DNA of 44,468 nt from a virus (taxonomy: Duplodnaviria > Caudoviricetes): IMG/VR virus record IMGVR_UViG_3300027828_000046, positions 1 to 44,468 of that record; one strand, 5' to 3'. The notes below the pieces were generated by a model that saw only the letters and a program-made list of their open reading frames with translations, was not told the DNA's origin and made no database searches. Positions within the stretch are counted from its first letter, which is position 1. Every line of letters begins with the position of its first letter. The translations under genes and the position numbers were made by a program. Shown piece by piece: positions 2,828 to 44,468 of the stretch.

Positions 2828-3105
2828 TAGAAAAAAAAATTAAAGATTTATTAGAAAAAGATACATATGATGCTCCAATTTTTGGAATTGGTTGTGATTG
2901 TGGTGATTCAATTAATAATTTAATTGGAGATTATGAAGAATATTTTTTGCAATATTCTTATGATTTAGAAAAATCTTGTAAACCTTTATTATCTGTTGGA
3001 AATAATGATAGTGATTATTTAATTATGATGAAGTATAAAATAGACCATAAAACACATATGCACAATTTATTTGAATATAAGCAATTTAGGGAAAGGCATT
3101 TATAA
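2824..3105 (+). CDS. Hypothetical protein
   Basis: ATGA overlap with the ligase stop; ends at the next promoter cassette. Confidence 0.7.
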   Translation: MIEKKIKDLLEKDTYDAPIFGIGCDCGDSINNLIGDYEEYFLQYSYDLEKSCKPLLSVGNNDSDYLIMMKYKIDHKTHMHNLFEYKQFRERHL

Positions 3106-3178
3106 AGCTTTCCATTTAAAATAGATAGCTTTATAAATATGGAAGTATATAAATATATATAAGTGGGTGATTAAAATG
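3098..3178. repeat. About 80-bp promoter/RBS cassette, inverted copy of 66-147 and 43936-44017
   Basis: Reverse complement of 43936-44017 matches with 4 substitutions and 1 indel; includes both TATA boxes and gtgggtga-taaaatg. Confidence 0.9.
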
Positions 3179-3385
3179 ATACAAAAATCAAAAGCTAAAA
3201 AAGATAATTGGGTTGTCTGGATTGGTAACAATGCACTGGGTAATTTATTAGTAAACAAAATTACATCAGTACGTGGTGGTAATATAAGGATTTTATTAAA
3301 TTCTTATGTTAGACCTATCATAAATAATGAAAGTATAGTTAAAATTTTTGATAGTGAAGAAGAAGCGTATGATTTTATACAATAG
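3176..3385 (+). CDS. Early hypothetical protein
   Basis: ATG at 3176 after promoter and gggtgat RBS. Confidence 0.75.
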   Translation: MIQKSKAKKDNWVVWIGNNALGNLLVNKITSVRGGNIRILLNSYVRPIINNESIVKIFDSEEEAYDFIQ

Positions 3386-3529: not shown

Positions 3530-3673
3530 ATGGGTTGGTCAAACAAAAAATCTGATGGATTTAAATTCTTATCAGATAAAAAAATTGACCAAATCATAAA
3601 TAAATATTCAAATGATTTTAAAGATATTAATCAAAATAATCAAAATAATATTAAGAAAAATGACAATCAATAA
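3530..3673 (+). CDS. Small protein (47 aa, MGWSNKKS...), not in the ORF track
   Basis: gagggtga upstream; abuts the previous stop and overlaps the HD-GYP start. Confidence 0.55.
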   Translation: MGWSNKKSDGFKFLSDKKIDQIINKYSNDFKDINQNNQNNIKKNDNQ

Positions 3674-4205
3674 ATTATTAAATAGGCTAAAAGAACATGA
3701 TATGATAACATATGAACATTCTATGAGAGTTGGGAGATTGAGTAGTATTGTAGGTCGTGAAATTGGTCTCACCAGGAGTGATATTCAACATCTTTTTGTT
3801 GTTGGTAGTTTACATGACATTGGAAAACTAAAAATAAGTCCAGAATTATTAAATAGTGGTGAATTAACTAAAGAACAGTTTGAAGAAATGAAAAAACATC
3901 CACAATATTCATTGGATATTTTAAAAGACTATACTAAATTAATCCCATCAGAATATTATAGTGGAATTATTGGGCATCATGAATGGAAAAAAGAAGGCTA
4001 TCCTAGAAAAAAACCTAGACAAACAGCTCATTCACATTTGGACCAAATTGTAGCTAGTTGTGATATTGTTGACGCTTTATTTAGTAAAAGAAGTTATAAA
4101 TCTGCAATGTCTAAAAAAATTGTAAAAGAAATAGCTGAAATGGAATTTACTGGAAATAAATATTATTTAGAAAAATCTATTGATTTATATTCCAAAATTA
4201 CTTAA
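3660..4205 (+). CDS. Stand-alone HD-GYP domain phosphodiesterase
   Basis: EHSMRV, LHDIGK, HPQYS, HHEWKKEGYP, DIVDAL..KRSYK motifs; start moved to 3660. Confidence 0.9.
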   Translation: MTINKLLNRLKEHDMITYEHSMRVGRLSSIVGREIGLTRSDIQHLFVVGSLHDIGKLKISPELLNSGELTKEQFEEMKKHPQYSLDILKDYTKLIPSEYYSGIIGHHEWKKEGYPRKKPRQTAHSHLDQIVASCDIVDALFSKRSYKSAMSKKIVKEIAEMEFTGNKYYLEKSIDLYSKIT

Positions 4206-15000: not shown

Positions 15001-15717
15001 TTATAATCTCATCATTCTAAATTTTGTATCAGCAGCGGAAACATTTTCCAAAGCGATACCTTCAGTGGAAACTGCTTTTGTTGCAGCAGCTGTTCCTCCT
15101 GTCATTAAATCTGGTCCATCAGCCGCAAAAGTTGTTAAAGCACTTGCTGTGATTAAAGCTGCAACGTCAGCATCTGCTGCAATTGCTGCTTGAACTTGTG
15201 CTATAGAACTAGTAGCATTTCCAGTAATTACTATTGCATAATTTGGAGCAGTACCTGTTACAACAGCTGTTTCAGCACCAGCTGCAACTCCTGTTTTAGT
15301 TTCAATAGAAATATAATTTCCTAAAGTTCCAAAATCAACAGCTGCAAAAACAACAGTTCCTACTGTTGCTGTTGCTTTAGTTCTTCCCGCTTCTGGTCCA
15401 TATTTTCCAGCAGCAGCACCTTTGACAAAGTCACCAGCAATTATAGCCGCACTTGAAGTTACATTTAATACTTCATCCTTTAATTTAACTAATACTAAAG
15501 AACCAGAATTGTAATTTTCTCCTGATGTACTAAATTCATTAGCAGCTTCAACCGCGTCTAATGGAACAGCCCAACCAATGGAATCAGTTGTTGTTCCTAC
15601 AATTACTCTTCCCTCTCTGGAAAGTTTAACTGGTGAATTGAAAGGAATAGTAGCTTCACATCTAAATGTGTTTGATACCTTTTCATCACTTCCAACCTCT
15701 GTTAAAATTGTAGTCAT
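15001..15717 (-). CDS. Capsid cement/decoration protein paralog 2, with an insertion of about 100 aa
   Basis: Near-identical segments to 15721-16140 (DSIGWAVPLDAVEAxNEFSTSGE, EVLNVTSSAAI, EGIAL). Confidence 0.75.
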   Translation of the reverse strand: MTTILTEVGSDEKVSNTFRCEATIPFNSPVKLSREGRVIVGTTTDSIGWAVPLDAVEAANEFSTSGENYNSGSLVLVKLKDEVLNVTSSAAIIAGDFVKGAAAGKYGPEAGRTKATATVGTVVFAAVDFGTLGNYISIETKTGVAAGAETAVVTGTAPNYAIVITGNATSSIAQVQAAIAADADVAALITASALTTFAADGPDLMTGGTAAATKAVSTEGIALENVSAADTKFRMMRL

Positions 15718-15720
15718 TTA

Positions 15721-16140
15721 TTAAAACCTCACAATTCTTATAGTAGCATCTGCACCAGCAGCAGCAGTTAAAGCAATTCCTTCACTAGCAACTGTTTTAG
15801 TAGTTGGTGTAGATTCTGGAGCATATTTTCCAGTAGCTGCACCTTTAACGAAATTTCCAACAGCGATTGCCGCACTTGAAGTTACATTTAAAACTTCACC
15901 TTTCATCTTTACCAAAACTAAAGAATCTGCATTGTATTGCTCACCTGATGTACTAAATTCATTTGATGCTTCAACTGCATCTAATGGAACAGCCCAACCG
16001 ATTGAATCAGTTCCTGTTCCAACAATAACAGTATTAGCAGCAGACAATTTAACTGGTAATCCAAAAGCAATAGCAGCACCAGCTTTAAATGTTGCTGAAA
16101 CATCTGTATCACTTCCAATCTCTGATAAAATACTTGTCAT
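15721..16140 (-). CDS. Capsid cement/decoration protein paralog 1
   Basis: Small Ala/Gly-rich protein between protease and MCP; AGAAIAFGLPV...AAIAVGNFV...GIALTAA pattern. Confidence 0.78.
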   Translation of the reverse strand: MTSILSEIGSDTDVSATFKAGAAIAFGLPVKLSAANTVIVGTGTDSIGWAVPLDAVEASNEFSTSGEQYNADSLVLVKMKGEVLNVTSSAAIAVGNFVKGAATGKYAPESTPTTKTVASEGIALTAAAGADATIRIVRF

Positions 16141-21442: not shown

Positions 21443-23742
21443 TTTTCACCAAAATATGGAACAACAGCACATCTACAATTTACACCTTCTGGTGGTCTAA
21501 TTACACCAATAGTAAATTTTTTTCCAACTTGAACTACTTGCCCATGGACAATTTGATGTAATGGTCTTACTCTTACATCACCTGCTGTAATCCATTGATT
21601 AAAATTTACAATTCCAGAATCTTTATAAGCTTCTTGAGCTGCACCATTAAAAACTCTATTCATTTCATTTTGTGCAATTGTCTTTAATCTGTTTTTATAT
21701 GTATTTGCAAAACTTGAACTAACAACAGTTTTAAATCTTTTAGCTGCTAAAGCTGGAGAATCTTCATTTGTGATTGCTGCTTCTAATTCTCTTCTTAAAT
21801 CTCCCTTCATATCATCACTAGCTTTTGTAACTTTATCCATTGCCTCAACTTGGATTTGTCTTTGGATTGCTTTTGTTCTATCTGAAACAATTATTTCTTT
21901 TCCTACTAAATCTTTTGCTTCTTCTGTTGCTGCTGTAATTCCATCAATTAATATTGGGGAAAATTTTAATTTTGATTCAGTATCAAAAGCTTTTACTTCT
22001 TGCTCAATTAATAAAAACGCTTCAGCCTCAGCATCTTTTTTAATTAGTCTTTTAATCTTATTAAAAAATTTTTCATCAAATTGTACTGAACCTTTTAAAG
22101 CTTTTGCCATACCATCAAATTTAAAACTATTATTAAAAACCTTGATTAAAGAATTTGCTGCCTTAGATTCTAATTTCATAAACTTCTCTTTCTCCCATGG
22201 ACTTTGCATAGGAGGTAATAATTTCGGATAAAATGGTTTTGCATCAATACCTAATAAATTTTTTAACATTTGAATAAATGATGATGTTTCAACTATTTCT
22301 TCTGTTTCTTCTTCATCTGGTTTATCTGATTTTTCAGCTGTAAAAATTATCATATTTGGATTTTGATTTAATTCAGACCATTCAACTGTACCCGGAACAA
22401 AATCTCTAAATTGATAATAAATATGATTATCTTCATCCATATCATCATAATCATCAGTATGTAAATTAGACATTAAAACCATTTCATCAGCTTGCTCTTT
22501 TGTAAATTCTTTTGAAATAACAATTTTATAATCAAATCTTAATGAATCTTGTTTATTTTGTTCCAAATTGGATTCTGTTGGAACTACATCAGAAACTTTT
22601 AATTCAGTTCCAAATTTATCATTTATCATTTCAATTACACTTTCTGGTGTTGCTCCTGTTAAAACTAAATCTTTTGCTGAAGTCGCCGCCTTTTGGAAAA
22701 TTTCCGCCTTTTCAACGTCTGTTTCTTCAAATAATGTTTCAAATTCTATTTCAACTTTATTTAAACCGAAAATATTAGTCAAACAATTAATTAAATTTGT
22801 TAAATATTTAATTCTTACAAGATTAATATCACCAAAATATTGTTTTTGATTTGTTTCTGAACCTGTAACTGCTCCAGCTTGTGCACCTATTAACATTTGC
22901 CATGGAATTTTTAAAGGAACTGAACAATCAATAATTGTTGTTTCCCATGCTTCTTTAATATTTACTCTTGAACCTTGGACCCCATGAATACCTAAATCAT
23001 ATCTATCATCAGAAATAAATGTTGTCTCAGAATTAACTTTATTAAATGTTCCGTTTTTTTTTACAGCGTCAACCTCAGACATTGAAACACCATCAATTTT
23101 AACATTTTTTGGATTTGAAATTTTAACATGTGTTAAACCTGCCGCACCTCTAAACATTGATTGACCAATTGACCATAAATTATTATCTTGTGTTGTCAAA
23201 GCCCTATAAGCTGGTATGTAACTTGATTTCATATCTTCTCTTAAAGTAACTTTAATTAATCTTGATTCGTGGATTTTTTGCGTTCCACCACCTTTTAACA
23301 TTATTTCATATGTCCCAATATTTGATAATTCTGGATTATTTTCATTATCTAAAACAAACCATGATTTAGGTAATACTTGTAAAAAATCAGGAATCATTTG
23401 AATTTCCAATGGTTCTTCTAATTCTTTTCCGTCTGGTATTCCTAAGAAAATAAATGAAACACCTGAAATGAAAGCTCTCTCAGTTGAATATCTAAAAACA
23501 GCATCAATATTTAATTCTTCTCTTAAATCTTCAAATATTTTATCAGAAGTTTCATATTTATCAGAAGTTAAATCCCCAACATATTGGTCACAAGCTCTAT
23601 AAGCAATTCCATTAAAAGTCCAAAGGTCCAAAAATTCTTGGTCTGAAATATCAGTTTCCCAAAATTTAGTAGTTATTGGTGTTATTACATCAGTATTTTC
23701 ATTATTTGATGTATTTGGTATTGTATCTTTTTCTTTTACCAT
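21439..23742 (-). CDS. Portal protein (DUF1073-like) fused to a MuF/SPP1 gp7-like minor head domain
   Basis: N-terminal part KIHESRL, IPWQMLIG...GSETNQKQYF, EFETLFE; C-terminal part RLKTIAQNE...WITAGDVRVRPLH..HG...PPEGVNCRC. Confidence 0.88.
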   Translation of the reverse strand: MVKEKDTIPNTSNNENTDVITPITTKFWETDISDQEFLDLWTFNGIAYRACDQYVGDLTSDKYETSDKIFEDLREELNIDAVFRYSTERAFISGVSFIFLGIPDGKELEEPLEIQMIPDFLQVLPKSWFVLDNENNPELSNIGTYEIMLKGGGTQKIHESRLIKVTLREDMKSSYIPAYRALTTQDNNLWSIGQSMFRGAAGLTHVKISNPKNVKIDGVSMSEVDAVKKNGTFNKVNSETTFISDDRYDLGIHGVQGSRVNIKEAWETTIIDCSVPLKIPWQMLIGAQAGAVTGSETNQKQYFGDINLVRIKYLTNLINCLTNIFGLNKVEIEFETLFEETDVEKAEIFQKAATSAKDLVLTGATPESVIEMINDKFGTELKVSDVVPTESNLEQNKQDSLRFDYKIVISKEFTKEQADEMVLMSNLHTDDYDDMDEDNHIYYQFRDFVPGTVEWSELNQNPNMIIFTAEKSDKPDEEETEEIVETSSFIQMLKNLLGIDAKPFYPKLLPPMQSPWEKEKFMKLESKAANSLIKVFNNSFKFDGMAKALKGSVQFDEKFFNKIKRLIKKDAEAEAFLLIEQEVKAFDTESKLKFSPILIDGITAATEEAKDLVGKEIIVSDRTKAIQRQIQVEAMDKVTKASDDMKGDLRRELEAAITNEDSPALAAKRFKTVVSSSFANTYKNRLKTIAQNEMNRVFNGAAQEAYKDSGIVNFNQWITAGDVRVRPLHQIVHGQVVQVGKKFTIGVIRPPEGVNCRCAVVPYFGEK

Positions 23743-23768
23743 TTTATTATATAAATATATAATATTTT

Positions 23769-24008
23769 TTATTGTTTATATAACTTAACATTTAAACGAT
23801 AATATTTTATACTATAAAAACCATTTCCTCTAAATTCTCTTACATATTTTTCTTCAATATTGTCAAATATACCTGGAAATTTTTTCATTTTTCTAATAGC
23901 TCGACATGTTTGTGATTTATTCATATTTAAAAAATTAGCTATTTGGTCTGTATTAAACCAGACAGTATTATTAGCCTTTAAAAAATTATATATTTCTTGT
24001 TGTGCCAT
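23769..24008 (-). CDS. Winged helix-turn-helix DNA-binding protein
   Basis: MAQQEIYNFLK...WFNTDQIANFLNMNKSQTCRAIRKM plus a beta wing; TAATG overlap with the TerL stop. Confidence 0.75.
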   Translation of the reverse strand: MAQQEIYNFLKANNTVWFNTDQIANFLNMNKSQTCRAIRKMKKFPGIFDNIEEKYVREFRGNGFYSIKYYRLNVKLYKQ

Positions 24009-25417
24009 TATGCAAAACCTCCCATAGTATTTCCACCACATTCTGAAAATGATGAGTAAGCGTTTGCAACCGCATCCGCCACGTCCGGAGATTTTCCAAT
24101 TCTTTTCTTAAATGTTTCTTTATCCTCAATCCATAATTTTTTTCCATCACTTCTCAATTTATAATGTCTTTTAGATAATTCAAAAACTAAATCAGCATCT
24201 TCGCATAAATCTAATTTATCAATATTTTTTCCAACCCAAAACCATAATTCTGTAATCCTGTTAAAAAACCTTTCACTATTAAAAGCGGAACTTCCGTTTA
24301 TAATTGGCGCAATTTCCGCTTCATGAGAATGTAATTCCGTTAATCTATCCGTTACTCCACCCCCAATACCCGTATCATCAATTGAAACCCTAACTTCATA
24401 TCCTTCATCCACAAATTGTCTAACTAATTTAGAGATTCTTCCAGCTGTTTGCATAGTATCTTCTTTGGAATGTTTTTCAATATGCCATAATTTATAACCA
24501 ATTCTACAAGCTATAACAGTTTTATCATTTCCAAATCTTGCAACATCCACACCAATTTCAATATCTGGTTTTCCTCTTAATTTTATATTTCTTTTCATAG
24601 CTTCCCTAACTTTGGCAGCTGTTACTATTGTGTCTATTGTTTGTTTTGGAAATTTAGAATCAAATAAAACACAAAATTCAATATTTGTTAAAAGTTCTTT
24701 TTGTTCGTCAACATAATCTTGTGTTATTCTCCCCTCTTTTATTCCTTGTCTCCAATCAATATGAAATTGTTCCCATCTTGGATTTTCCCATAAATCTGCT
24801 GCAATATTATCAGTTCCCCATGGATTGAATAAACCAACCATTATAGATTCTTCTGGATTATCTCCTAATAATCTGAAAACTCTTTCTCTAAATGTAGTTG
24901 GAGAAATTAAAGCCAATTCATCAACAATATTTAAATCTCCACCTTCTCCCATGGCTTGCTCTCCTTTACCTTGAACTCCTAAAGTTGCAATCTCACATCC
25001 ATTTTTAAAAGTTTGTCTTTTTTTTGATGCCTCCACGTCACCGTCTTCTTTTTGCGTTGAAAAATGCGCAACAGTTTTCAAAGTTCGTGACCTAGCTAAA
25101 AATTTTGCGGCAACTTTTCTAATAATATAAGTTTGAGACCATTGAGGACCAATTATATTTACTCTTCTGTTTCTATTAAGAATAACGTAAAGATTTGCAA
25201 GAATTCCCATTGCATGAGATTTCCCAAATCTAGTAAAACAATTTAAAAGCAATCTCCTACAACCATGAAATAATATTTTCTTCATAATTAAACATTGTGA
25301 AGGTGTTGGATATTCATGTGGCTCTAAATTAAATTCATAAATACACATAGACAAAATATCTTCGGTTTCAATCCAATATTGCCAAAAATCTTCTGCTGTC
25401 CAATTTGTTGTGTCCAT
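24008..25417 (-). CDS. terL: Terminase large subunit
   Basis: Walker A TRFGKS, Walker B IVDE, coupling motif FNP, RNase H motifs GVDVARFGND, IDDTGIGGGV, SPDVADA. Confidence 0.95.
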   Translation of the reverse strand: MDTTNWTAEDFWQYWIETEDILSMCIYEFNLEPHEYPTPSQCLIMKKILFHGCRRLLLNCFTRFGKSHAMGILANLYVILNRNRRVNIIGPQWSQTYIIRKVAAKFLARSRTLKTVAHFSTQKEDGDVEASKKRQTFKNGCEIATLGVQGKGEQAMGEGGDLNIVDELALISPTTFRERVFRLLGDNPEESIMVGLFNPWGTDNIAADLWENPRWEQFHIDWRQGIKEGRITQDYVDEQKELLTNIEFCVLFDSKFPKQTIDTIVTAAKVREAMKRNIKLRGKPDIEIGVDVARFGNDKTVIACRIGYKLWHIEKHSKEDTMQTAGRISKLVRQFVDEGYEVRVSIDDTGIGGGVTDRLTELHSHEAEIAPIINGSSAFNSERFFNRITELWFWVGKNIDKLDLCEDADLVFELSKRHYKLRSDGKKLWIEDKETFKKRIGKSPDVADAVANAYSSFSECGGNTMGGFA

Positions 25418-33057: not shown

Positions 33058-33203
33058 AATTAAATTGTTTTTTATTTGGACATAAATTTTTGAAATTTGA
33101 TGATATTATAATGTGTCAAAAATGTGGTGAAATGATTGTAACACCATCTGATGATGAAATCAAAAATATTGAAAATGACCATAAAAGTGACATTTTTCAA
33201 TAG
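33054..33203 (+). CDS. Small Zn-binding protein (CxLFGH...CxxC, DUF1660-like), not in the ORF track
   Basis: MKLNCFLFGHKF...MCQKCGE. Confidence 0.7.
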   Translation: MKLNCFLFGHKFLKFDDIIMCQKCGEMIVTPSDDEIKNIENDHKSDIFQ

Positions 33204-33240
33204 ATAAGTTTATAAATATGGAAGTACTTAAATATATATG
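33201..33240 (+). promoter_or_regulatory. Promoter of the TTTATAAATATRGAAGTA class
   Basis: tttataaatatggaagtacttaaatatatat, nearly identical to 40164-40194. Confidence 0.8.
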
Positions 33241-37492: not shown

Positions 37493-40060
37493 ATGAAAAC
37501 AATAGTAAGAGTTAAAGAAACACCAACAGGTGTTAGGGTTAAGAAAAGAATTGATGGTGAAATTAAATTTGAAGACATTGAATTTAATAATTATTTTTAT
37601 ATTAAAAAATCTGATTATGAATTATTTAGAGATACGATTCAAGAAGAATCTAAACATATTTTAGGAATTGCTGAATGTCCTGAAAAAGATGCTGTTAAAA
37701 TAATTTTTATTGATAATTTTTCAAGATATAAATTAAAATCTAAATTTGAAATATTAAAAATTCCATTATATGAAGCAGATTTGATGGCCAATAAAAGATG
37801 GTTGATTGATACTAAACCAGAAATGAATTCAAAAGGTTTAAAATGGCTTATGTATGATATAGAAACAAAAGATGATTCACCATTTGAAAAGGATATGATG
37901 GGAGCAATTATTGCAATGGAACCAGTTTTATGTATTGCATATAAAGATATAGATGGAAATCAATTTTTTATTAAAAATGAAAATTTAGAAAATCCAATTG
38001 AGGGAGAAAAAAAATTACTTAAATTACATGATGAAATAATAACACATTATGATATTATTTTAGGTTGGAATTCTAAAAGATTTGATGATACTTATATAAA
38101 ACAAAGAAATGAATTACATGAAATTTCTAATTATAATTGGGATTTTATAAATCAAATTGATTATAAAGAATTAGTTGAGAAATATTTATTCCCAAAAATT
38201 CCTAGTTATTCTTTAAATAATGCTTCAAAAAGTATTTTAAATGATACTAAACTTGAAGGTTTTAAAGCTGGAAAAGGAAATGTTTTGAAACATTGGAGGA
38301 TGTCATTTGATGGAGATAATACACTTGAAAAATATAATGAACAAGATGTTGAATTAATGTTTAAAATGGAACAGAAATTAAATTTTATAACTTTAGCAAT
38401 GAATCAAGCAGATATTGCTGGATGTCAAATTCAAGAAACTCTTTATAATTCTGAAATCTGGGATATGATTTTATTAAAAGAATATGATATAAAAAATTTA
38501 TTATCACCTACAAGACCATCTAAAGAAGAAATTGAAAAAAGAAAAAAAGATTTTTATGTTGCTGGTGCTTATACTTTTTGTTTAAATCCTGGTGTCCATG
38601 AAAAAGTTTTTGTATTTGACTTTAAAAGTTTTTATCCGACAACTGTTACAGCTTGTAATATTTGTAATACAACATTATTAAATGGTGTTGATATAATAGA
38701 GGCTGGAGAATTTAAAACTACAATTCCTTCTGATATTCATCAGGTGAATTTACAAACTACCAAAAGTCCATTTCTTATGGACTTGAAAAAAAATGAAGTA
38801 TCTAATTGTGAAACCATTAAAATAATTGAAATGGATAAAAAATCAGCTAAATTACAATTTAATGAAAAACATTTCACAAATTCAAAAAGAGGAATACTTT
38901 CAGAAATTATGGATTTATATATTTCAAAAAGAGATGAAACAAAATATTTAGCAAAAATTGAAAAGGATGAATTCAAAAAGAAAGAATTGGATTCAATACA
39001 AAATTCATATAAAACCCTTGCAAATTCAGGCTATGGGGCAATGGGAATGGTTGGATTTAGATATTTTAATCAAAATATTGCGAATGCTATTACACAATTT
39101 TGTAGGTATGTAATTAAAGAATGTATTTGTATTGCGAGTGAAATGGGTTTTAAAGTTATTCAAGGTGATACTGATTCTATAATGTTTATTAATGTTGAAA
39201 ATAAACATACAGAAAAAGATTTGGAATATGAGTTTTATAAACAATTTGATGAAATTGCAAAAAGACAAAATATTGAATCAAAAAAATTTGAATTAGTGAA
39301 TCCTAAAACAAAAGAGAAAGAAGAAAAAAATCATTTTATTGTTTTTGAACATGAAAAAACTTTTAATAAAATGATTTCAATTAAGAAAAAAAATTATGCT
39401 GATTTAATGATTGAAATGGATAAAGATGGAAATCCAATTGGAGAACCAAAAATATCAATAACTGGTTTAGAATGTATAGCAAAAGATACAAATCCACTTG
39501 CAAAAGAAATGCAAAAAACTTTAATAGATAATATTTTAAATGATACATTTTCAGAATCAATATTTTTAAAAGATATTAATATGATAAAATTAGAATTACA
39601 AAATAATGTACTTGATACAAAATATTTAATTATGCAAAAATCATTAAATAAAAATCCAGAAGATTATGGACAACCTATGATTGATTCTAAAACTGGATTA
39701 CCAAAATTAAGAAAATCAGATGGAATGCCAATGTTTTCACCAATTCCAGCGCATGTAAAATTGGCAAAAGAATTAATTAAAAAAGGTCATGATATTTATG
39801 TTGGTGATGAAATCACATATATAGTGAAAGAGCAAGGTCCAATAGTTCCAATTTCTATTGAGGATTATATTGATGGGGAAGATTTTGATAGAGAATATTA
39901 TTGGGACAGAATAATAACACCAATCATGAAAATATTATTTATTACACATCCTAATTTAATTTTAGATAATCCAGAATTATGGACAATGAAAGAATTAAAT
40001 GAAAAGAAATTAGAAAAACATATTGAAAAATTAAAAAAGAATTGTTTAAAAGATGAATGA
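37493..40060 (+). CDS. polB: Family B DNA polymerase with 3'-5' exonuclease
   Basis: ExoI YDIET, ExoII WNSKRFD, ExoIII YNEQD; FDFKSFYPT, KTLANSGYG, QGDTDS, KKNYA. Confidence 0.96.
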   Translation: MKTIVRVKETPTGVRVKKRIDGEIKFEDIEFNNYFYIKKSDYELFRDTIQEESKHILGIAECPEKDAVKIIFIDNFSRYKLKSKFEILKIPLYEADLMANKRWLIDTKPEMNSKGLKWLMYDIETKDDSPFEKDMMGAIIAMEPVLCIAYKDIDGNQFFIKNENLENPIEGEKKLLKLHDEIITHYDIILGWNSKRFDDTYIKQRNELHEISNYNWDFINQIDYKELVEKYLFPKIPSYSLNNASKSILNDTKLEGFKAGKGNVLKHWRMSFDGDNTLEKYNEQDVELMFKMEQKLNFITLAMNQADIAGCQIQETLYNSEIWDMILLKEYDIKNLLSPTRPSKEEIEKRKKDFYVAGAYTFCLNPGVHEKVFVFDFKSFYPTTVTACNICNTTLLNGVDIIEAGEFKTTIPSDIHQVNLQTTKSPFLMDLKKNEVSNCETIKIIEMDKKSAKLQFNEKHFTNSKRGILSEIMDLYISKRDETKYLAKIEKDEFKKKELDSIQNSYKTLANSGYGAMGMVGFRYFNQNIANAITQFCRYVIKECICIASEMGFKVIQGDTDSIMFINVENKHTEKDLEYEFYKQFDEIAKRQNIESKKFELVNPKTKEKEEKNHFIVFEHEKTFNKMISIKKKNYADLMIEMDKDGNPIGEPKISITGLECIAKDTNPLAKEMQKTLIDNILNDTFSESIFLKDINMIKLELQNNVLDTKYLIMQKSLNKNPEDYGQPMIDSKTGLPKLRKSDGMPMFSPIPAHVKLAKELIKKGHDIYVGDEITYIVKEQGPIVPISIEDYIDGEDFDREYYWDRIITPIMKILFITHPNLILDNPELWTMKELNEKKLEKHIEKLKKNCLKDE

Positions 40061-40196
40061 AGAAGATATTTTAAAATATTGTTTAAAAGAGGCTTGTGAT
40101 AAATGTAGAATGTTAAATTATAGAATATCTATTGAAAAATTACTTGAACAAGAAATAAATAGTTTTATAAATATAGAAGTACTTAAATATATATAA
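40053..40196 (+). CDS. Small hypothetical protein (47 aa, MNEEDILK...)
   Basis: Open frame filling the PolB-dUTPase gap; overlaps a promoter, so uncertain. Confidence 0.4.
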   Translation: MNEEDILKYCLKEACDKCRMLNYRISIEKLLEQEINSFINIEVLKYI

Positions 40197-40198
40197 AA
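40161..40198 (+). promoter_or_regulatory. Promoter of the pyrimidine-metabolism operon
   Basis: tttataaatatagaagtacttaaatatatat directly before the dUTPase ATG. Confidence 0.8.
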
Positions 40199-40642
40199 AT
40201 GGAATATTTAAAAGTAAAAGATTTAGGAAAAGATGGAAAAATTTTAGCACCAGCAAAAGTTGGTGATGTTGGTTATGATGTTATTGCAACAGAAGATTGT
40301 TATATTGGTTTAAATGATAGACATAATATGCCATTAGGAATTGCAATAGAAATTCCATTGGGATATGTTGCAATTATTCAAGCAAAATCTGGAAGAGCAA
40401 AAAAAGAAGGAATAACAACAATTGGAAATATAATTGATTCTGGATATAGAGGAGAAATTCATGCAAATATTGTAAATACTGGATTAACACCAATAGAAAT
40501 ATCTAAAGGTGAAAAAGTAGCACAAATTTTATTTCATAAATGTTATACACCAGAAATTCAAATAGTTTCAGAATTATCTGAATCAGAAAGAGGGGATAAA
40601 GGTTTTGGAAGTACTGGTTTATATTGTGAGGATAAACAATGA
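40199..40642 (+). CDS. dut: Trimeric dUTPase family protein
   Basis: DVGYDV, AKSGRA, IIDSGYRGEI, GEKVAQ, RGDKGFGSTG. Confidence 0.93.
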   Translation: MEYLKVKDLGKDGKILAPAKVGDVGYDVIATEDCYIGLNDRHNMPLGIAIEIPLGYVAIIQAKSGRAKKEGITTIGNIIDSGYRGEIHANIVNTGLTPIEISKGEKVAQILFHKCYTPEIQIVSELSESERGDKGFGSTGLYCEDKQ

Positions 40643-41148
40643 AATTTAATTTAATTATTGAAGGTTGTGATTGTACTGGAAAAACAAGTTTAATAGGACA
40701 ATTAATGAAATCATTAAAATATAAAAATGTTATAAAATGCTCTAATCAAGAAAATAAAAAAGAAGGAAAAAAATTTAATGAAGATTTGGTTAAATTTATG
40801 AATATCGAAAAAAGTGTTATTTTTGATAGGGCAACTTTATCCGAAGATATTTATCCTGAAATTATGAAAAGATATAAAATTAATTATATGAGACAATTAG
40901 AAAAAAAGGTTTTAAATCATAATATTTTAATTGTTTTAACTGTTGGAAATGATGAAATCTTAAAAAAAAGATTTGATGGTGAATATATAACAGAAAAACA
41001 ATTATTAAAAATTAGAGATAGATATGAAAAATTATTTCCAAAATTAAATTATAAACATAAAATTCTAATTGATACATCAAATAAAAATACTAATCAAATT
41101 ATAAATATAATTTATGATTATATCTTAAAAAATTGTGAGGTTAATTAA
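40639..41148 (+). CDS. Thymidylate-kinase-like dNMP kinase
   Basis: IIEGCDCTGKTS P-loop and VIFDRATLSEDIY. Confidence 0.85.
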   Translation: MKFNLIIEGCDCTGKTSLIGQLMKSLKYKNVIKCSNQENKKEGKKFNEDLVKFMNIEKSVIFDRATLSEDIYPEIMKRYKINYMRQLEKKVLNHNILIVLTVGNDEILKKRFDGEYITEKQLLKIRDRYEKLFPKLNYKHKILIDTSNKNTNQIINIIYDYILKNCEVN

Positions 41149-41985
41149 ATGTTTTATTATACTTTAGATATAATTTATAAAAAAATTATTAGGGAATTAC
41201 TAGAACAAAAACCTATATTAAATGAAAGAACAAAAGTTGAAACCAAATCATTATGGGGAGTAAATTTTGATTGGGATATGAGTTTTTATCCATTATTAGA
41301 TTGTAGACAAATGTTTCCAAAAACAGGTGCTGCTGAATTGGCATGGATGTTGAGAGGAACAAAAAATATTTCTTTTATTAGAAAATATTCTAAAATTTGG
41401 GATAAATTTACTGATGATGATAAACCTAATGAAATTAAAACAGCATATGGATATAGATGGTCACATGCTTTTGGTTATGACCAAATAAATAATATAATTG
41501 AAAAATTAAAAAAAGACCCTAGTTCAAGACAACAAATTTTATTAAATTGGGACCCTAGAACAGATAATATTGAAAAGGCAAAAAATATCCCATGTCCATT
41601 TGCTATTGTTGTTGGAATAATTGATGGAAGATTAAATCTTCATTTAACTGTTAGGAGTCAGGACTGGATGATAGGATTCCCTTATGATATTTTAACTTAT
41701 ACTTTATTAGGTAATGCTTTGGCGAATTCTTTAAATATTCCAGTTGGAAAATTACATTATAGTATTGCTAATTGTCATATTTATGAAAATCATTTTAAAC
41801 AAGCAAAAAAAATAATTGAATCTAAAAAATTGGGATTACATAAAATTTATATTATAAATAATAATTTTACAATTGAAGATATAAGAGAAATGTCACATGA
41901 TTATGTTGATATTATTGATAAAGATTGTTTAGAATCTGGATATAATATGGAAAAAGAAAGAATGGAGTTTGATATTGTCCAATGA
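41149..41985 (+). CDS. thyA: Thymidylate synthase family protein with the dCMP-type specificity residue (putative dCMP methylase)
   Basis: ELAWMLRG, IWDKF, AYGYRW, DPSSRQ, catalytic PC (C149), RSQD..IGFPYD (D180), HIYENH. Confidence 0.92.
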   Translation: MFYYTLDIIYKKIIRELLEQKPILNERTKVETKSLWGVNFDWDMSFYPLLDCRQMFPKTGAAELAWMLRGTKNISFIRKYSKIWDKFTDDDKPNEIKTAYGYRWSHAFGYDQINNIIEKLKKDPSSRQQILLNWDPRTDNIEKAKNIPCPFAIVVGIIDGRLNLHLTVRSQDWMIGFPYDILTYTLLGNALANSLNIPVGKLHYSIANCHIYENHFKQAKKIIESKKLGLHKIYIINNNFTIEDIREMSHDYVDIIDKDCLESGYNMEKERMEFDIVQ

Positions 41986-42440
41986 AAACAATTATAATGT
42001 TAAGTAATGATGGATTTTTTGCACATGAAGATGGCTCTCTAAATTTTGGTTGTAAAGAAGATAAAATATGGTTAAGAAAACAAATTAAAAATAAATGGAT
42101 TTTAGTTGGATATAATACATTTATTTCTATTAAAAATTACCCAAAATTATTATCACTTCCAGATAGATGGATTGTAGTAACTACAAAAAAAGTAAATTAC
42201 ACAAAATTAAATAATGTTATGTTTGTTAAAAAAAATGATATTAAAAATTATAAAATTGATATAAATTTTGGTGGAATACAAACAATAAAAGATTTCAAAT
42301 CAGATAGAATTATTGTTAATAGAATGAATAAAAAAATTTATATAGGTCTTAAATTTCCAAAAGAAATTTTTAAGGATTATATTTTACAAGAAATAATCAC
42401 TTTTGAAAATTATAAAAGAGAAATATGGGATTTAAAATGA
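41982..42440 (+). CDS. Dihydrofolate reductase-like protein
   Basis: DGSLNF..KEDKIWLRK, ILVGYNTF.S, LPDR.IVVT, FGG; coupled to the thyA homolog. Confidence 0.8.
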   Translation: MKTIIMLSNDGFFAHEDGSLNFGCKEDKIWLRKQIKNKWILVGYNTFISIKNYPKLLSLPDRWIVVTTKKVNYTKLNNVMFVKKNDIKNYKIDINFGGIQTIKDFKSDRIIVNRMNKKIYIGLKFPKEIFKDYILQEIITFENYKREIWDLK

Positions 42441-42832
42441 ATAAAAGACATTTAAAATTATATAAAAATATTGCAAATTTAATCATGGATTGTTCAGCTG
42501 ATAAAAAGAAAAAGGTTGGTGCAATTCTAATAAAAGACGGTAGAATTTTGGCTACTGGATATAATGGACAAATTCCAGGTGAAAAACATATTCCAATTGA
42601 AAGAAATGGGAAAGATATTTCAACTGTACATGCTGAACAAAATGTTTTATGTTTTTGTGCTAAAAATGGAATATCAACAAATGATTGTGAATTAATAACA
42701 ACATTATATCCATGTAATGATTGTACTAAATTATTAATTCAAGCAGGAATTAAAAGGATTTATTATATTGAAGAAAAAAATATAGGAGATAATATTTTTA
42801 AAAAATTCATCAAAATTAAAAAATTAAAATGA
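42437..42832 (+). CDS. dCMP deaminase family protein
   Basis: VGAIL, TGYNG, HAEQN, PCNDC, IQAGIKRIYY; start moved to MNKRH (ATGA overlap). Confidence 0.93.
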   Translation: MNKRHLKLYKNIANLIMDCSADKKKKVGAILIKDGRILATGYNGQIPGEKHIPIERNGKDISTVHAEQNVLCFCAKNGISTNDCELITTLYPCNDCTKLLIQAGIKRIYYIEEKNIGDNIFKKFIKIKKLK

Positions 42833-43284
42833 CTAAACAAATAACAGAGGAAAAATTTAAAGAAGATGTTGAAAAACTTGATGGATTTTTTGTTGAAAAA
42901 CTTCAAGTAAATCCATTTGCTTTTACTGATGTTTCAGCTGATTATTTAATACAAAATGAAAAATTTGATATATTATGTGAAGTTAAAGAAATTAAAATGA
43001 GGAATAGAAAAACAGAACCAAAATTTACAATTTCAAGATTAACACAAGAAAAAAAATTATGGGATTGGGAACATAGATTTCAAAGAAATAAATCATTTAT
43101 ATTTTTTTGTTTTTGGGATACAAATAAAAAAAAATCTAATTCTTATTTAGTTTCAATTTTGGCATGGATTAGATTAAGAAGAATTTGGATAAAATCAGAT
43201 ATAACACCTGAAGAATTTGAACAAGAATTTTATTTATATAAAGTTAAATTAAATAATAATGTTTGGCAATTAGATTTTAATTAA
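42829..43284 (+). CDS. Holliday junction resolvase-like PD-(D/E)xK nuclease (RecU/Hjc type)
   Basis: N-terminal E helix, SADYL, LCEVK, RLTQ. Confidence 0.7.
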   Translation: MTKQITEEKFKEDVEKLDGFFVEKLQVNPFAFTDVSADYLIQNEKFDILCEVKEIKMRNRKTEPKFTISRLTQEKKLWDWEHRFQRNKSFIFFCFWDTNKKKSNSYLVSILAWIRLRRIWIKSDITPEEFEQEFYLYKVKLNNNVWQLDFN

Positions 43285-43458: not shown

Positions 43459-43938
43459 TTATATTAAAAACCAATTTTTGATTTCTTTCCAATCCCCATC
43501 AATTAATGTTTTTTCAAATTTATTATCTTTCCCCCAAATTTGTCCTGTCCCAGATAATTTTTTTTCTTTAACTAATTTTTTTATATGGTCATATCCAGTT
43601 GTTGGACAAATTGTATAAATAACATCTCCGGTTTCAATATCACAAATTCTAAAATCGTCATATAAACTTCCTTGTAATGGACAATTATTCTTAAAAAATA
43701 CATAACATTTTTCATTGTCAAATTTTTTAGATTCACTAATTTGTTTTAATTTTTTTAATAATATTACTGTTTTATTTGGTAATGATGAATCATTACAAAA
43801 CCAATCATACCATAACTCTTCTGTTAATTCTGGAATTTTTCCAGCCTCAAAATCTTTTAATATTTCGTTTATATTTCTTTCCATTTTTCTCACTCTAGGA
43901 TATAAATTCATATGTTTCCATATTTTTGTTTTTTCCAT
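43459..43938 (-). CDS. Early hypothetical protein
   Basis: WYDWFC...YVFFKNNCP..G.LYDDFRI motif; ATG at 43938 after gggtga RBS and the leftward promoter. Confidence 0.85.
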   Translation of the reverse strand: MEKTKIWKHMNLYPRVRKMERNINEILKDFEAGKIPELTEELWYDWFCNDSSLPNKTVILLKKLKQISESKKFDNEKCYVFFKNNCPLQGSLYDDFRICDIETGDVIYTICPTTGYDHIKKLVKEKKLSGTGQIWGKDNKFEKTLIDGDWKEIKNWFLI

Positions 43939-44468
43939 TTTAGTCACCCACTTATATATATTTATGTACTTCCATATTTATAAAGTTTTCTATTTTAAAA
44001 TGGAAAGCTTTATAAATATGGAAGTATATGTATACATATCAAAGGGTGATAAAAATGACAGATTTACAAGAAGTTGCAAAAACAATAGTTAACCAAATAA
44101 TGACTATAGACAAATGGGCTTTAGCTGCCTGGGGATATAATAAACCTATGGTATATACTAAAGATAATAAACCAACATTAGGATTTAGATGTAGTGGGAC
44201 AAAAGTTAGAAAAGGTGGATTTTGTGAAATTAGTTTAAATGAAGCACAAGATTTATATGAAGTTAGATTGTTTAGAATAATTGGTTTAAATCAAACCACA
44301 TTAGGAGCAAAAACAGAAGTTTTTTGGGAAGATTTAGTAAGTGTTTGTGATGAGTTAATTGGGTAAAATGGTAGATTATAAACAAATAGCAGAATTAAAA
44401 ATTAAAATAGAAGATTTAAAATTAAAAATTAATATTTTGAAAAGAGATAGAAATAATAATAAACTTAA
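43871..44468 (+). repeat. Terminal direct repeat / circular overlap, right copy
   Basis: Matches 1-598 with 16 mismatches. Confidence 0.97.
44055..44366 (+). CDS. Variant copy of the early protein at 185-496
   Basis: Five amino-acid differences (A/T, G/A, G/N, K/R, N/S). Confidence 0.85.
   Translation: MTDLQEVAKTIVNQIMTIDKWALAAWGYNKPMVYTKDNKPTLGFRCSGTKVRKGGFCEISLNEAQDLYEVRLFRIIGLNQTTLGAKTEVFWEDLVSVCDELIG

Follow-up and report, generated by a model that had tools for sequence, protein, structure and literature searches.

A predicted Xp12-type cytosine-replacement cassette with an Asn-type trimeric dUTPase in a likely archaeal tailed virus

The virus record IMGVR_UViG_3300027828_000046 (Duplodnaviria; Caudoviricetes), whose 44,468 nucleotides were analysed in full and are here called the window, carries a cassette of small nucleotide-metabolism genes built around a thymidylate synthase (TS) homolog. 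The interpretation favoured here, and regarded as fairly probable, is that these genes form a cytosine-replacement cassette of the type found in phage Xp12, carried by a likely archaeal tailed virus, with 5-methyl-dCTP taking the place of most dCTP. Such replacement needs the removal of dCTP. In the proposed pathway, an Asn-type trimeric dUTPase would convert dCTP (and probably dUTP too) into the monophosphate, which would both remove the competitor and feed the synthase, and the latter would methylate dCMP to 5-methyl-dCMP with methylene-tetrahydrofolate. A dihydrofolate reductase (DHFR) would recycle the dihydrofolate, the viral kinase and the host NDP kinase would supply 5-methyl-dCTP to the viral family B DNA polymerase (PolB), and a deaminase would convert some of the 5-methylated pool to thymidine nucleotides, in place of an ordinary thymidylate synthase.

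The TS homolog (41149..41985, + strand, 278 aa; PF00303, 1e-49) reads R169-S170-Q171-D172...P178-Y179-D180, D180 being the codon GAT at 41686-41688. When the protein is aligned with PDB entries, or with E. coli ThyA by MAFFT, this segment is gap-free and D180 falls on E. coli Asn177, so that the Asn-to-Asp replacement proposed in an earlier note on this DNA is borne out, as is the Pro that follows the catalytic Cys (Cys149-Pro150, with P150 on His147). D180 is invariant in the 39 rows compared (the query and 38 homologs). Two marine-sediment runs, from which this DNA may have come, yield contigs that cover the gene at a depth of ~150-170 with no other letter; on this ground and on the invariance of D180, an assembly error at the Asp codon is very unlikely and was rejected. 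The catalytic residues of the TS fold are kept (C149, R169, S170, D172, H210 and Y212, corresponding to Cys, Arg-Ser, Asp169, His207 and Tyr209), and the AlphaFold model (pLDDT 93) returns the TS fold in a fold search.

Four residues of canonical ThyA, Asn177, His147, Leu143 and Gln165, are replaced by D180, P150, N146 and V168. Asp at position 177, Pro at 147 and Asn at 143 are the same as in Xp12 and PaMx74, and the K/N-C-P and D177 pattern is common across the clade. Among 12 pocket residues near C5, a list drawn from the accessible part of PMC13326640, 10 are identical to the Xp12 TS, nine to that of PaMx74, seven to T4 gp42 and six to ThyA. The alignment and tree with ThyA, T4 gp42 and Xp12-type enzymes, which the earlier note had proposed as a check, group the window protein with Xp12 and PaMx74: in a quick IQ-TREE analysis of 81 rows, with the careful search unfinished, it falls in a 31-row clade (support 99) inside a 50-row group (90) that also holds the Xp12/PaMx74 clade (98), and the ThyA group stands apart (99). 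Xp12, PaMx74 and their kin are also among the best 60 phage matches to the synthase.

The Asn177Asp change is known to switch ThyA specificity (cited in PMC8670742), and in the accessible text of the same paper no other marker of cytosine-modified contigs ranks above positions 177 and 147. In addition, the Xp12 TS and five of seven metagenomic Asp-type TS made 5-methyldeoxycytidine (5mdC) in E. coli, according to the accessible part of bioRxiv 10.1101/2024.12.05.627091. The window synthase is thus predicted, with high confidence, to be a dCMP C5-methyltransferase. Its Xp12-like pocket, the Asn at the Leu143 position and the linked DHFR with its key residues favour methylation of dCMP over that of dUMP and over hydroxymethylation, in line with what had been proposed.

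The remaining genes of the cassette supply partners for such a reaction. The divergent DHFR (41982..42440, +; PHROG 316, 4e-8; PF00186, 8e-4) retains D27, G43, T46 and G97-G98 in an alignment with the DHFRs of Xp12, PaMx74 and the Candidate Phyla Radiation (CPR), so that its assignment in the operon holds with the key residues intact. The deoxynucleoside monophosphate kinase, which is thymidylate-kinase-like (40639..41148, +; PHROG 761, 1e-13; PF02223, 8e-6), would phosphorylate 5-methyl-dCMP, its inferred substrate. The earlier note had named these two genes, the dUTPase and the TS correctly; it had left the fifth gene (42425..42832, +, probable start 42437; PF00383, 2e-22) unnamed and so missed the deaminase step. 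This gene encodes a Zn enzyme of the dCMP-deaminase family that keeps the motifs HAE and PCxxC in the alignment. By analogy with the linked deaminase mSCD-B5, reported to convert 99% of 5mdCTP vs 4% of dCTP (bioRxiv 10.1101/2024.12.05.627091, accessible part), it is a candidate 5-methyl-dCTP/5-methyl-dCMP deaminase, probably giving thymidine nucleotides. It is the likely source of these nucleotides because the whole genome holds a single TS match and a Pfam scan and tblastn showed no ThyX in the window. The earlier note had seen no glycosyltransferase, and none turned up in Pfam and PHROG scans or in tblastn searches that used T4 beta-gt and a glycosyltransferase-like neighbour gene from locus L112 as queries; a carbamoyltransferase was not found in the window either.

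The first gene of the cassette (40199..40642, +; PF00692, 2e-28) encodes a trimeric dUTPase-fold enzyme that scores 106 against a cut-off of 102.55 for TIGR00576 and holds Asn77 where solved dUTPases carry the motif-III Gly. In an alignment of 119 proteins, 43 have the motif-III Asn, the query among them. A Z-genome phage has a trimeric dUTPase-like enzyme whose specificity has shifted to purine triphosphates. On the basis of its fold, this residue and the company it keeps in other genomes, the Asn-type dUTPase is a candidate dCTPase, an assignment judged somewhat better than even.

The evidence of co-occurrence comes from two scans. The first was built on Asn-type sequences and gave 99 viral dUTPase loci, of which the best 80 were scored: nine were Asn-type, eight of them with a gp42-like Asp-type TS within the locus, whereas in the ninth the dUTPase gene lies at the edge of a 5-kb fragment. 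The remaining 71 loci held no Asp-type TS and one canonical TS. The second, a pattern scan, gave 15 matches, of which nine were already known, two were not dUTPases and four were new Asn-type loci; three of these four carry an Asp-type TS (two Xp12-type, one gp42-type), and the one without belongs to a record 33% complete. Of the 13 viral contigs other than the window that were found with the Asn variant in these scans, 11 have an Asp-type TS nearby vs 0 of 71 other dUTPase loci, and 9 of these 11 synthases are gp42-like. Locus L061 likewise combines an Asn-type dUTPase with an Xp12-type TS. Among 28 viral loci with an Asp-type TS, several of them close kin, an all-alpha pyrophosphatase (PRA-PH or dimeric dUTPase) is encoded in 23 and a Gly-type trimeric dUTPase in none; no homolog of an all-alpha pyrophosphatase (PRA-PH/MazG or dimeric) was found in the window by Pfam or tblastn.

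The loci with gp42-like hydroxymethylases beside Asn-type dUTPases (L111-L116, L123, L124 and L203) belong to phages, and some of them also encode S-adenosylmethionine methyltransferases, a carbamoyltransferase (one Asn-type locus) or sugar-nucleotide genes (another), which makes them candidates for cytosine hypermodifications.

Several observations weigh against the favoured interpretation. Nearly all Asn-type dUTPases belong to a single clade (44 of 46 rows, support 0.93), with pairwise identities of 37-64%; the cases of co-occurrence are therefore not independent, and the Fisher value of 3e-10 overstates their independence. Moreover, 70 of the 71 control dUTPase loci have no TS of any kind nearby, and for nine more Asn-type proteins outside the clade the genomic context was not found. 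According to the accessible text of a review, trimeric dUTPases read uracil via main-chain atoms (PMC12524310). Two of the seven tested Asp-type TS gave no 5mdC (bioRxiv 10.1101/2024.12.05.627091, accessible part), and the nearest TS relatives of known context include sigma-70/PolA bacteriophages (L006-L009). To these points are added some of the data on restriction sites and on cellular relatives of the synthase.

The restriction-site pattern of the window is mixed. AGCT, CCGG and GGNCC are not avoided (130/132, 12/12 and 17/18, observed/expected), and the enzymes for these sites are blocked on Xp12 DNA (PMC7653180, Table S3, as far as accessible). GATC is absent (0 vs 107 expected), with normal use in the closest related virus, L053 (93/97), and the enzymes DpnII and MboI, which recognise GATC, are reported to cut fully methylated Xp12 DNA (PMC7653180). 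On the unfavourable side, TCTAGA (0/11), CTTAAG (2/10) and CTNAG (31/79) are under-used in the window, and the commercial enzymes for these three sites are also listed in the accessible part of PMC7653180 as blocked on Xp12 DNA; CTNAG is under-used by Xp12 and PaMx74 too. Equally unfavourable is L061, with its Asp-type TS and Asn-type dUTPase, which avoids GGNCC (0/17) and CCWGG (0/9), sites that 5-methylcytosine (5mC) would block. The window is also low in GATATC (1/12) and ATGCAT (1/15). Its CpG depletion (observed/expected 0.27) was considered as a sign of substitution and rejected, because Xp12 and PaMx74, at 1.03 and 1.12, indicate that depletion is no sign of full substitution. The presence of 5mC in most of the viral DNA is held to be probable.

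The alternative that survives best, unlikely as it is judged to be, is that the cassette serves as a dTTP shunt only, in which dCMP would be methylated and the product deaminated, with viral DNA keeping mostly plain cytosine. It is favoured by the site avoidance of L061, by the combination in the virus of a deaminase with no other TS, and above all by cellular relatives. In Patescibacteria-type genomes an Asp/Pro-type TS sits among housekeeping genes and is the sole strong TS match in 5/5 genomes tested; ThyX was not found in 10/10 such genomes, none of them counted as 90% complete. In the class of one Uhrbacteria metagenome-assembled genome (MAG), 76 of 151 sampled genomes have a TS match, and six of eight further mid-score matches are of the Asp/Pro type, beside rplA, rplK, nusG or gatB. 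The clusters add DHFR, tmk, a deaminase and dCTP deaminase or dUTPase, and one of them lies on a 1.03-Mb contig. Because cells are unlikely to replace all their cytosine, the enzyme alone is no proof of DNA substitution, and the fact that several Patescibacteria genomes have no other clear synthase is what gives a role in dTTP supply its weight. The clusters point either to dTTP made via 5-methyl-cytosine nucleotides or to a chromosome that contains some 5mC.

The cells differ from the virus in their dUTPases, which are Gly/Ala-type in 5/5 cellular clusters, a finding that fits cells retaining dCTP and using the synthase for dTTP; in a separate search of Patescibacteria dUTPase matches, 10 of 13 were readable and all 10 were Gly-type. 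In contrast, the virus has the Asn type, as found beside cytosine-modifying synthases including those of hydroxymethylase loci. In addition, the operon kinase would put 5-methyl-dCTP into the pool, and Xp12, with the same kind of cassette, has DNA with 100% 5mC (PMC7653180, accessible part). These points argue for replacement over a shunt alone. In the Patescibacteria-type MAGs (L029-L044, L102, L104, L106-L109) the deaminase is often fused to a nucleoside deoxyribosyltransferase domain, and in one genome (G039, C1 ~22500-24800) the cluster holds another, weak TS-like gene.

An archaeal host is quite probable, and the main alternative to it, that the cassette works as proposed in a bacterial host, e.g. 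a Patescibacterium, which would make this virus another Xp12-like phage, is rather improbable. TATA-like boxes lie 24-60 nt upstream of 15/21 unit-head genes vs 13/49 internal genes (p = 0.001), and a sigma-70-like pair at 1/21 unit-head genes; these counts come from a curated list of 70 genes in which one internal start is mis-set. A scan for sigma-70 sites gave 39 in the window vs 36 in shuffles. The best PDB matches of PolB are Thermococcales PolB (~1e-23, low identity), the closest structures to the AAA ATPase are archaeal, also at low identity, and Pfam/PHROG scans of the window turned up neither a lysin or holin nor a sigma factor. DHFR presence implies a folate-using host. A bacterial host is favoured by the close TS relatives in bacteriophages and by the named relatives of the dUTPase, which come from CPR and DPANN and include Patescibacteria as well as Pacearchaeota/Nanoarchaeota. 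No CRISPR spacer or provirus link to any host was found, and the capsid profile gave 0 matches in 400 Asgard genomes in a search without a positive control. The suggestion of an archaeal virus is favoured by promoters and replication genes.

Two other lines on the host were set aside. An ESM Atlas search with the AAA ATPase returned mostly bacterial clusters and is not usable as a host test. Two TS matches in one Asgard MAG are no evidence of an Asgard host, because both come from phages: L028, 2.6 kb long, is syntenic with L008, and G007:C76 (L065, L070, L071), a contig of 72 kb, encodes PolA and a sigma-like gene product. Both are L006-L008-type phage contigs with an Asp-type TS cassette, Asgard-binned and probably misbinned. 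A possible second archaeal case is L060 (9.6 kb, GC 25%), which has a TATA-like box before one gene, an Xp12-type TS (~50% identity), a dimeric dUTPase and a DUF1599-like gene.

Ordinary thymidylate synthesis, with a divergent ThyA acting on dUMP despite the Asp beside a normal dUTPase and a dCMP deaminase, is very unlikely. The five enzymes equally make up the textbook set for dTTP synthesis, a dCTP deaminase and a canonical dUTPase occur in CPR clusters, and the two Asp-type TS without 5mdC would fit such a role; against it stand the Asn177Asp specificity switch, the marker value of positions 147 and 177 and the Xp12-like pocket. Least probable of all is a T4 gp42-like hydroxymethylase giving 5-hydroxymethylcytosine, perhaps modified further, since, despite the Asp177 common with gp42 and the gp42-like type of most Asp-type TS beside other Asn-type dUTPases, the window enzyme has N146, like Xp12, where hydroxymethylases carry Asp/Glu at position 143 (PMC13326640, accessible part), a DHFR is present here and none occurs among the scanned neighbour genes of gp42-like loci, no glycosyl- or carbamoyltransferase was found, and D172 (D169) is kept, so that the D169N mark of the 5-hydroxy-dCMP synthases of RB69/DLP3 is absent and the enzyme is not of the 5-hydroxylase type.

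The layout of the genes is compact. The five cassette genes are spaced by -4, 0, -4 and -4 nt (overlapping or abutting), and the PolB gene (37493..40060, +; PF00136, 1e-38) lies directly upstream, the earlier note having placed the operon next to PolB. The cassette is preceded by an archaeal-type promoter region (40152..40198, +) that belongs to a repeated viral promoter family; its TTTATAAA box, at 40164, is 35 nt upstream of the ATG of the dUTPase gene. The five-gene operon under one promoter that had been proposed, with its fifth gene unnamed, stands as regards gene order and the TTTATAAA box and has to be extended: a candidate Holliday-junction-resolvase-like nuclease gene (RecU/Hjc-like; 42829..43284, +; ESM Atlas look-alikes at 0.94-0.95, a lead only) shares 4 bases with the end of the deaminase gene, so the transcription unit probably comprises six genes. 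The cassette is followed by RecU-like genes in L008 and L028 as well.

The repeated promoter element, 45-60 bp long, consists of a purine-rich box, TTTATAAATA, GGAAGTA and often GGTGA, with copies at 68-184, 1119-1177, 3098-3193, 33191-33239, 40153-40196 and 43938-44054; two copies stand back to back at the genome ends as a divergent pair. Structural genes are preceded by a second, TTATATA-type element.

The window is a complete tailed virus, likely from marine sediment. Genes for capsid, portal, terminase, tail tube and tape measure are all present in Pfam/PHROG scans, as expected of Caudoviricetes. The ends share a 598-bp repeat (1-598 and 43871-44468, 97% identity), and a contig joint in the two marine-sediment runs spans them, which together indicate a complete circle of ~43.9 kb, despite a CheckV completeness of 59%. 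The 16 positions that differ between the two repeat copies suggest that two strains or variants were joined in assembly. The closest related virus (L053, capsid 70%) shows no TS in a 34.8-kb fragment that is 49% complete, which is uninformative on this point. Elsewhere, an HD-GYP-like phosphodiesterase gene (3612-4205, +; HHE..GYP; NCBIfam NF053512, 2e-11, under the family cut-off) could serve in counter-defence by degrading cyclic dinucleotide signals, and two neighbouring cement/decoration-like genes (15001-16140, -) have a common 340-bp segment with 78% identity (tandem duplication). A CRISPR-like join of window positions 40019 and 38484, with 33 letters between short matches, is probably due to chance; it occurs in one low-depth contig in both runs and is unconfirmed because a second listing lacks that contig and both matches lie in A-rich sequence.

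As far as the literature search showed, genes for whole-genome 5mC made at the nucleotide level have been assigned only in bacteriophages. That search, with most subscription papers outside its scope, returned no report of such a cassette in an archaeal virus, of an Asp-type TS in Patescibacteria or of a trimeric dCTPase. If the Asn-type dUTPase is a dCTPase, it would add a specificity not seen before to a family held to act strictly on uracil, and a single residue could then serve to find cytosine-modified viruses. The deaminase may belong to the 5mC-selective class that methylome sequencing makes use of. A broader proposal, put forward tentatively, is that the cassette is a gene-level route to a fully 5mC archaeal-virus genome, with a trimeric dUTPase retuned by Gly-to-Asn to a dCTPase; that the variant marks both methyl- and hydroxymethyl-type cytosine-replacing viruses; that such a cassette may explain the phenotype of virus PhiN; and that some Patescibacteria cells make dTTP via 5-methyl-cytosine nucleotides.

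Halobacterium virus PhiN was reported as fully cytosine-methylated in 1988 (Vogelsang-Wenke and Oesterhelt), with no genes assigned (PMC4284463, accessible part). The supposed novelty in archaeal viruses is thereby narrowed to the genes, the phenotype having been on record since that year, and the scheme attributed to Xp12 is indeed published, also for PaMx74 and metagenomic phages. PhiN differs from the window virus in being a 70% GC halovirus, and the accessible text leaves its route open between host and viral methylases (PMC4284463); the cassette offers five small testable enzymes for a phenotype that has stood without genes. Other archaeal tailed-virus papers (PMC8651126, bioRxiv 10.1101/2025.02.15.638363) describe ThyX/TS and deazaguanine pathways and, in their accessible parts, no dCMP methylase.

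Among the known cytosine systems, the T4 hydroxymethylcytosine pathway (gp42, gp1, gp56) resembles the cassette in the Asp at the specificity position, the kinase and a pool-clearing enzyme, and differs in hydroxymethylation without DHFR, Asp143/Thr147, a dimeric all-alpha dCTPase, a separate td gene and glucosylation. The MetaGPA modules (mSCD-B5; PMC8670742, bioRxiv 10.1101/2024.12.05.627091), compared here by description from the accessible texts, have an Asp-type TS at most 3 kb from a PF00383 deaminase and a proposed supply of thymidine from 5-methyl-dC nucleotides. However, they are described from bacteriophages, the accessible part of PMC8670742 does not mention dUTPase, and that of the preprint refers to archaea only in other contexts.

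The closest likeness is to Xp12 (MT664984, QNN97214) and PaMx74 (JQ067093, PaMx74_52), which share the Asp177/Pro147/Asn143 synthase (32-34% identity), an adjacent deaminase and DHFR, and a cassette by the DNA polymerase region; in both phages pyrophosphatase, TS, deaminase and DHFR are grouped together. The window has the linked deaminase, the DHFR and no canonical TS, and lacks the all-alpha pyrophosphatase. It further differs in its probable archaeal host, PolB rather than PolA, its AT-rich 44-kb genome and its in-operon kinase. Judged by sequence, the cassette would work like the Xp12/PaMx74 system, with a synthase that has the marks of the family and a different pyrophosphatase. Since the deaminase step and the cassette are as in Xp12, the synthase-deaminase pathway itself is already known from phages. 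The new element is the Asn-type trimeric dUTPase linked to Asp-type synthases, where Xp12 and PaMx74 have an all-alpha PRA-PH pyrophosphatase; it shares the fold and motifs I-V of canonical trimeric dUTPases (TIGR00576, PF00692) and departs from them in the Asn at the motif-III Gly, in the His-Ala after YRGE and in its tight linkage to cytosine-type synthases.

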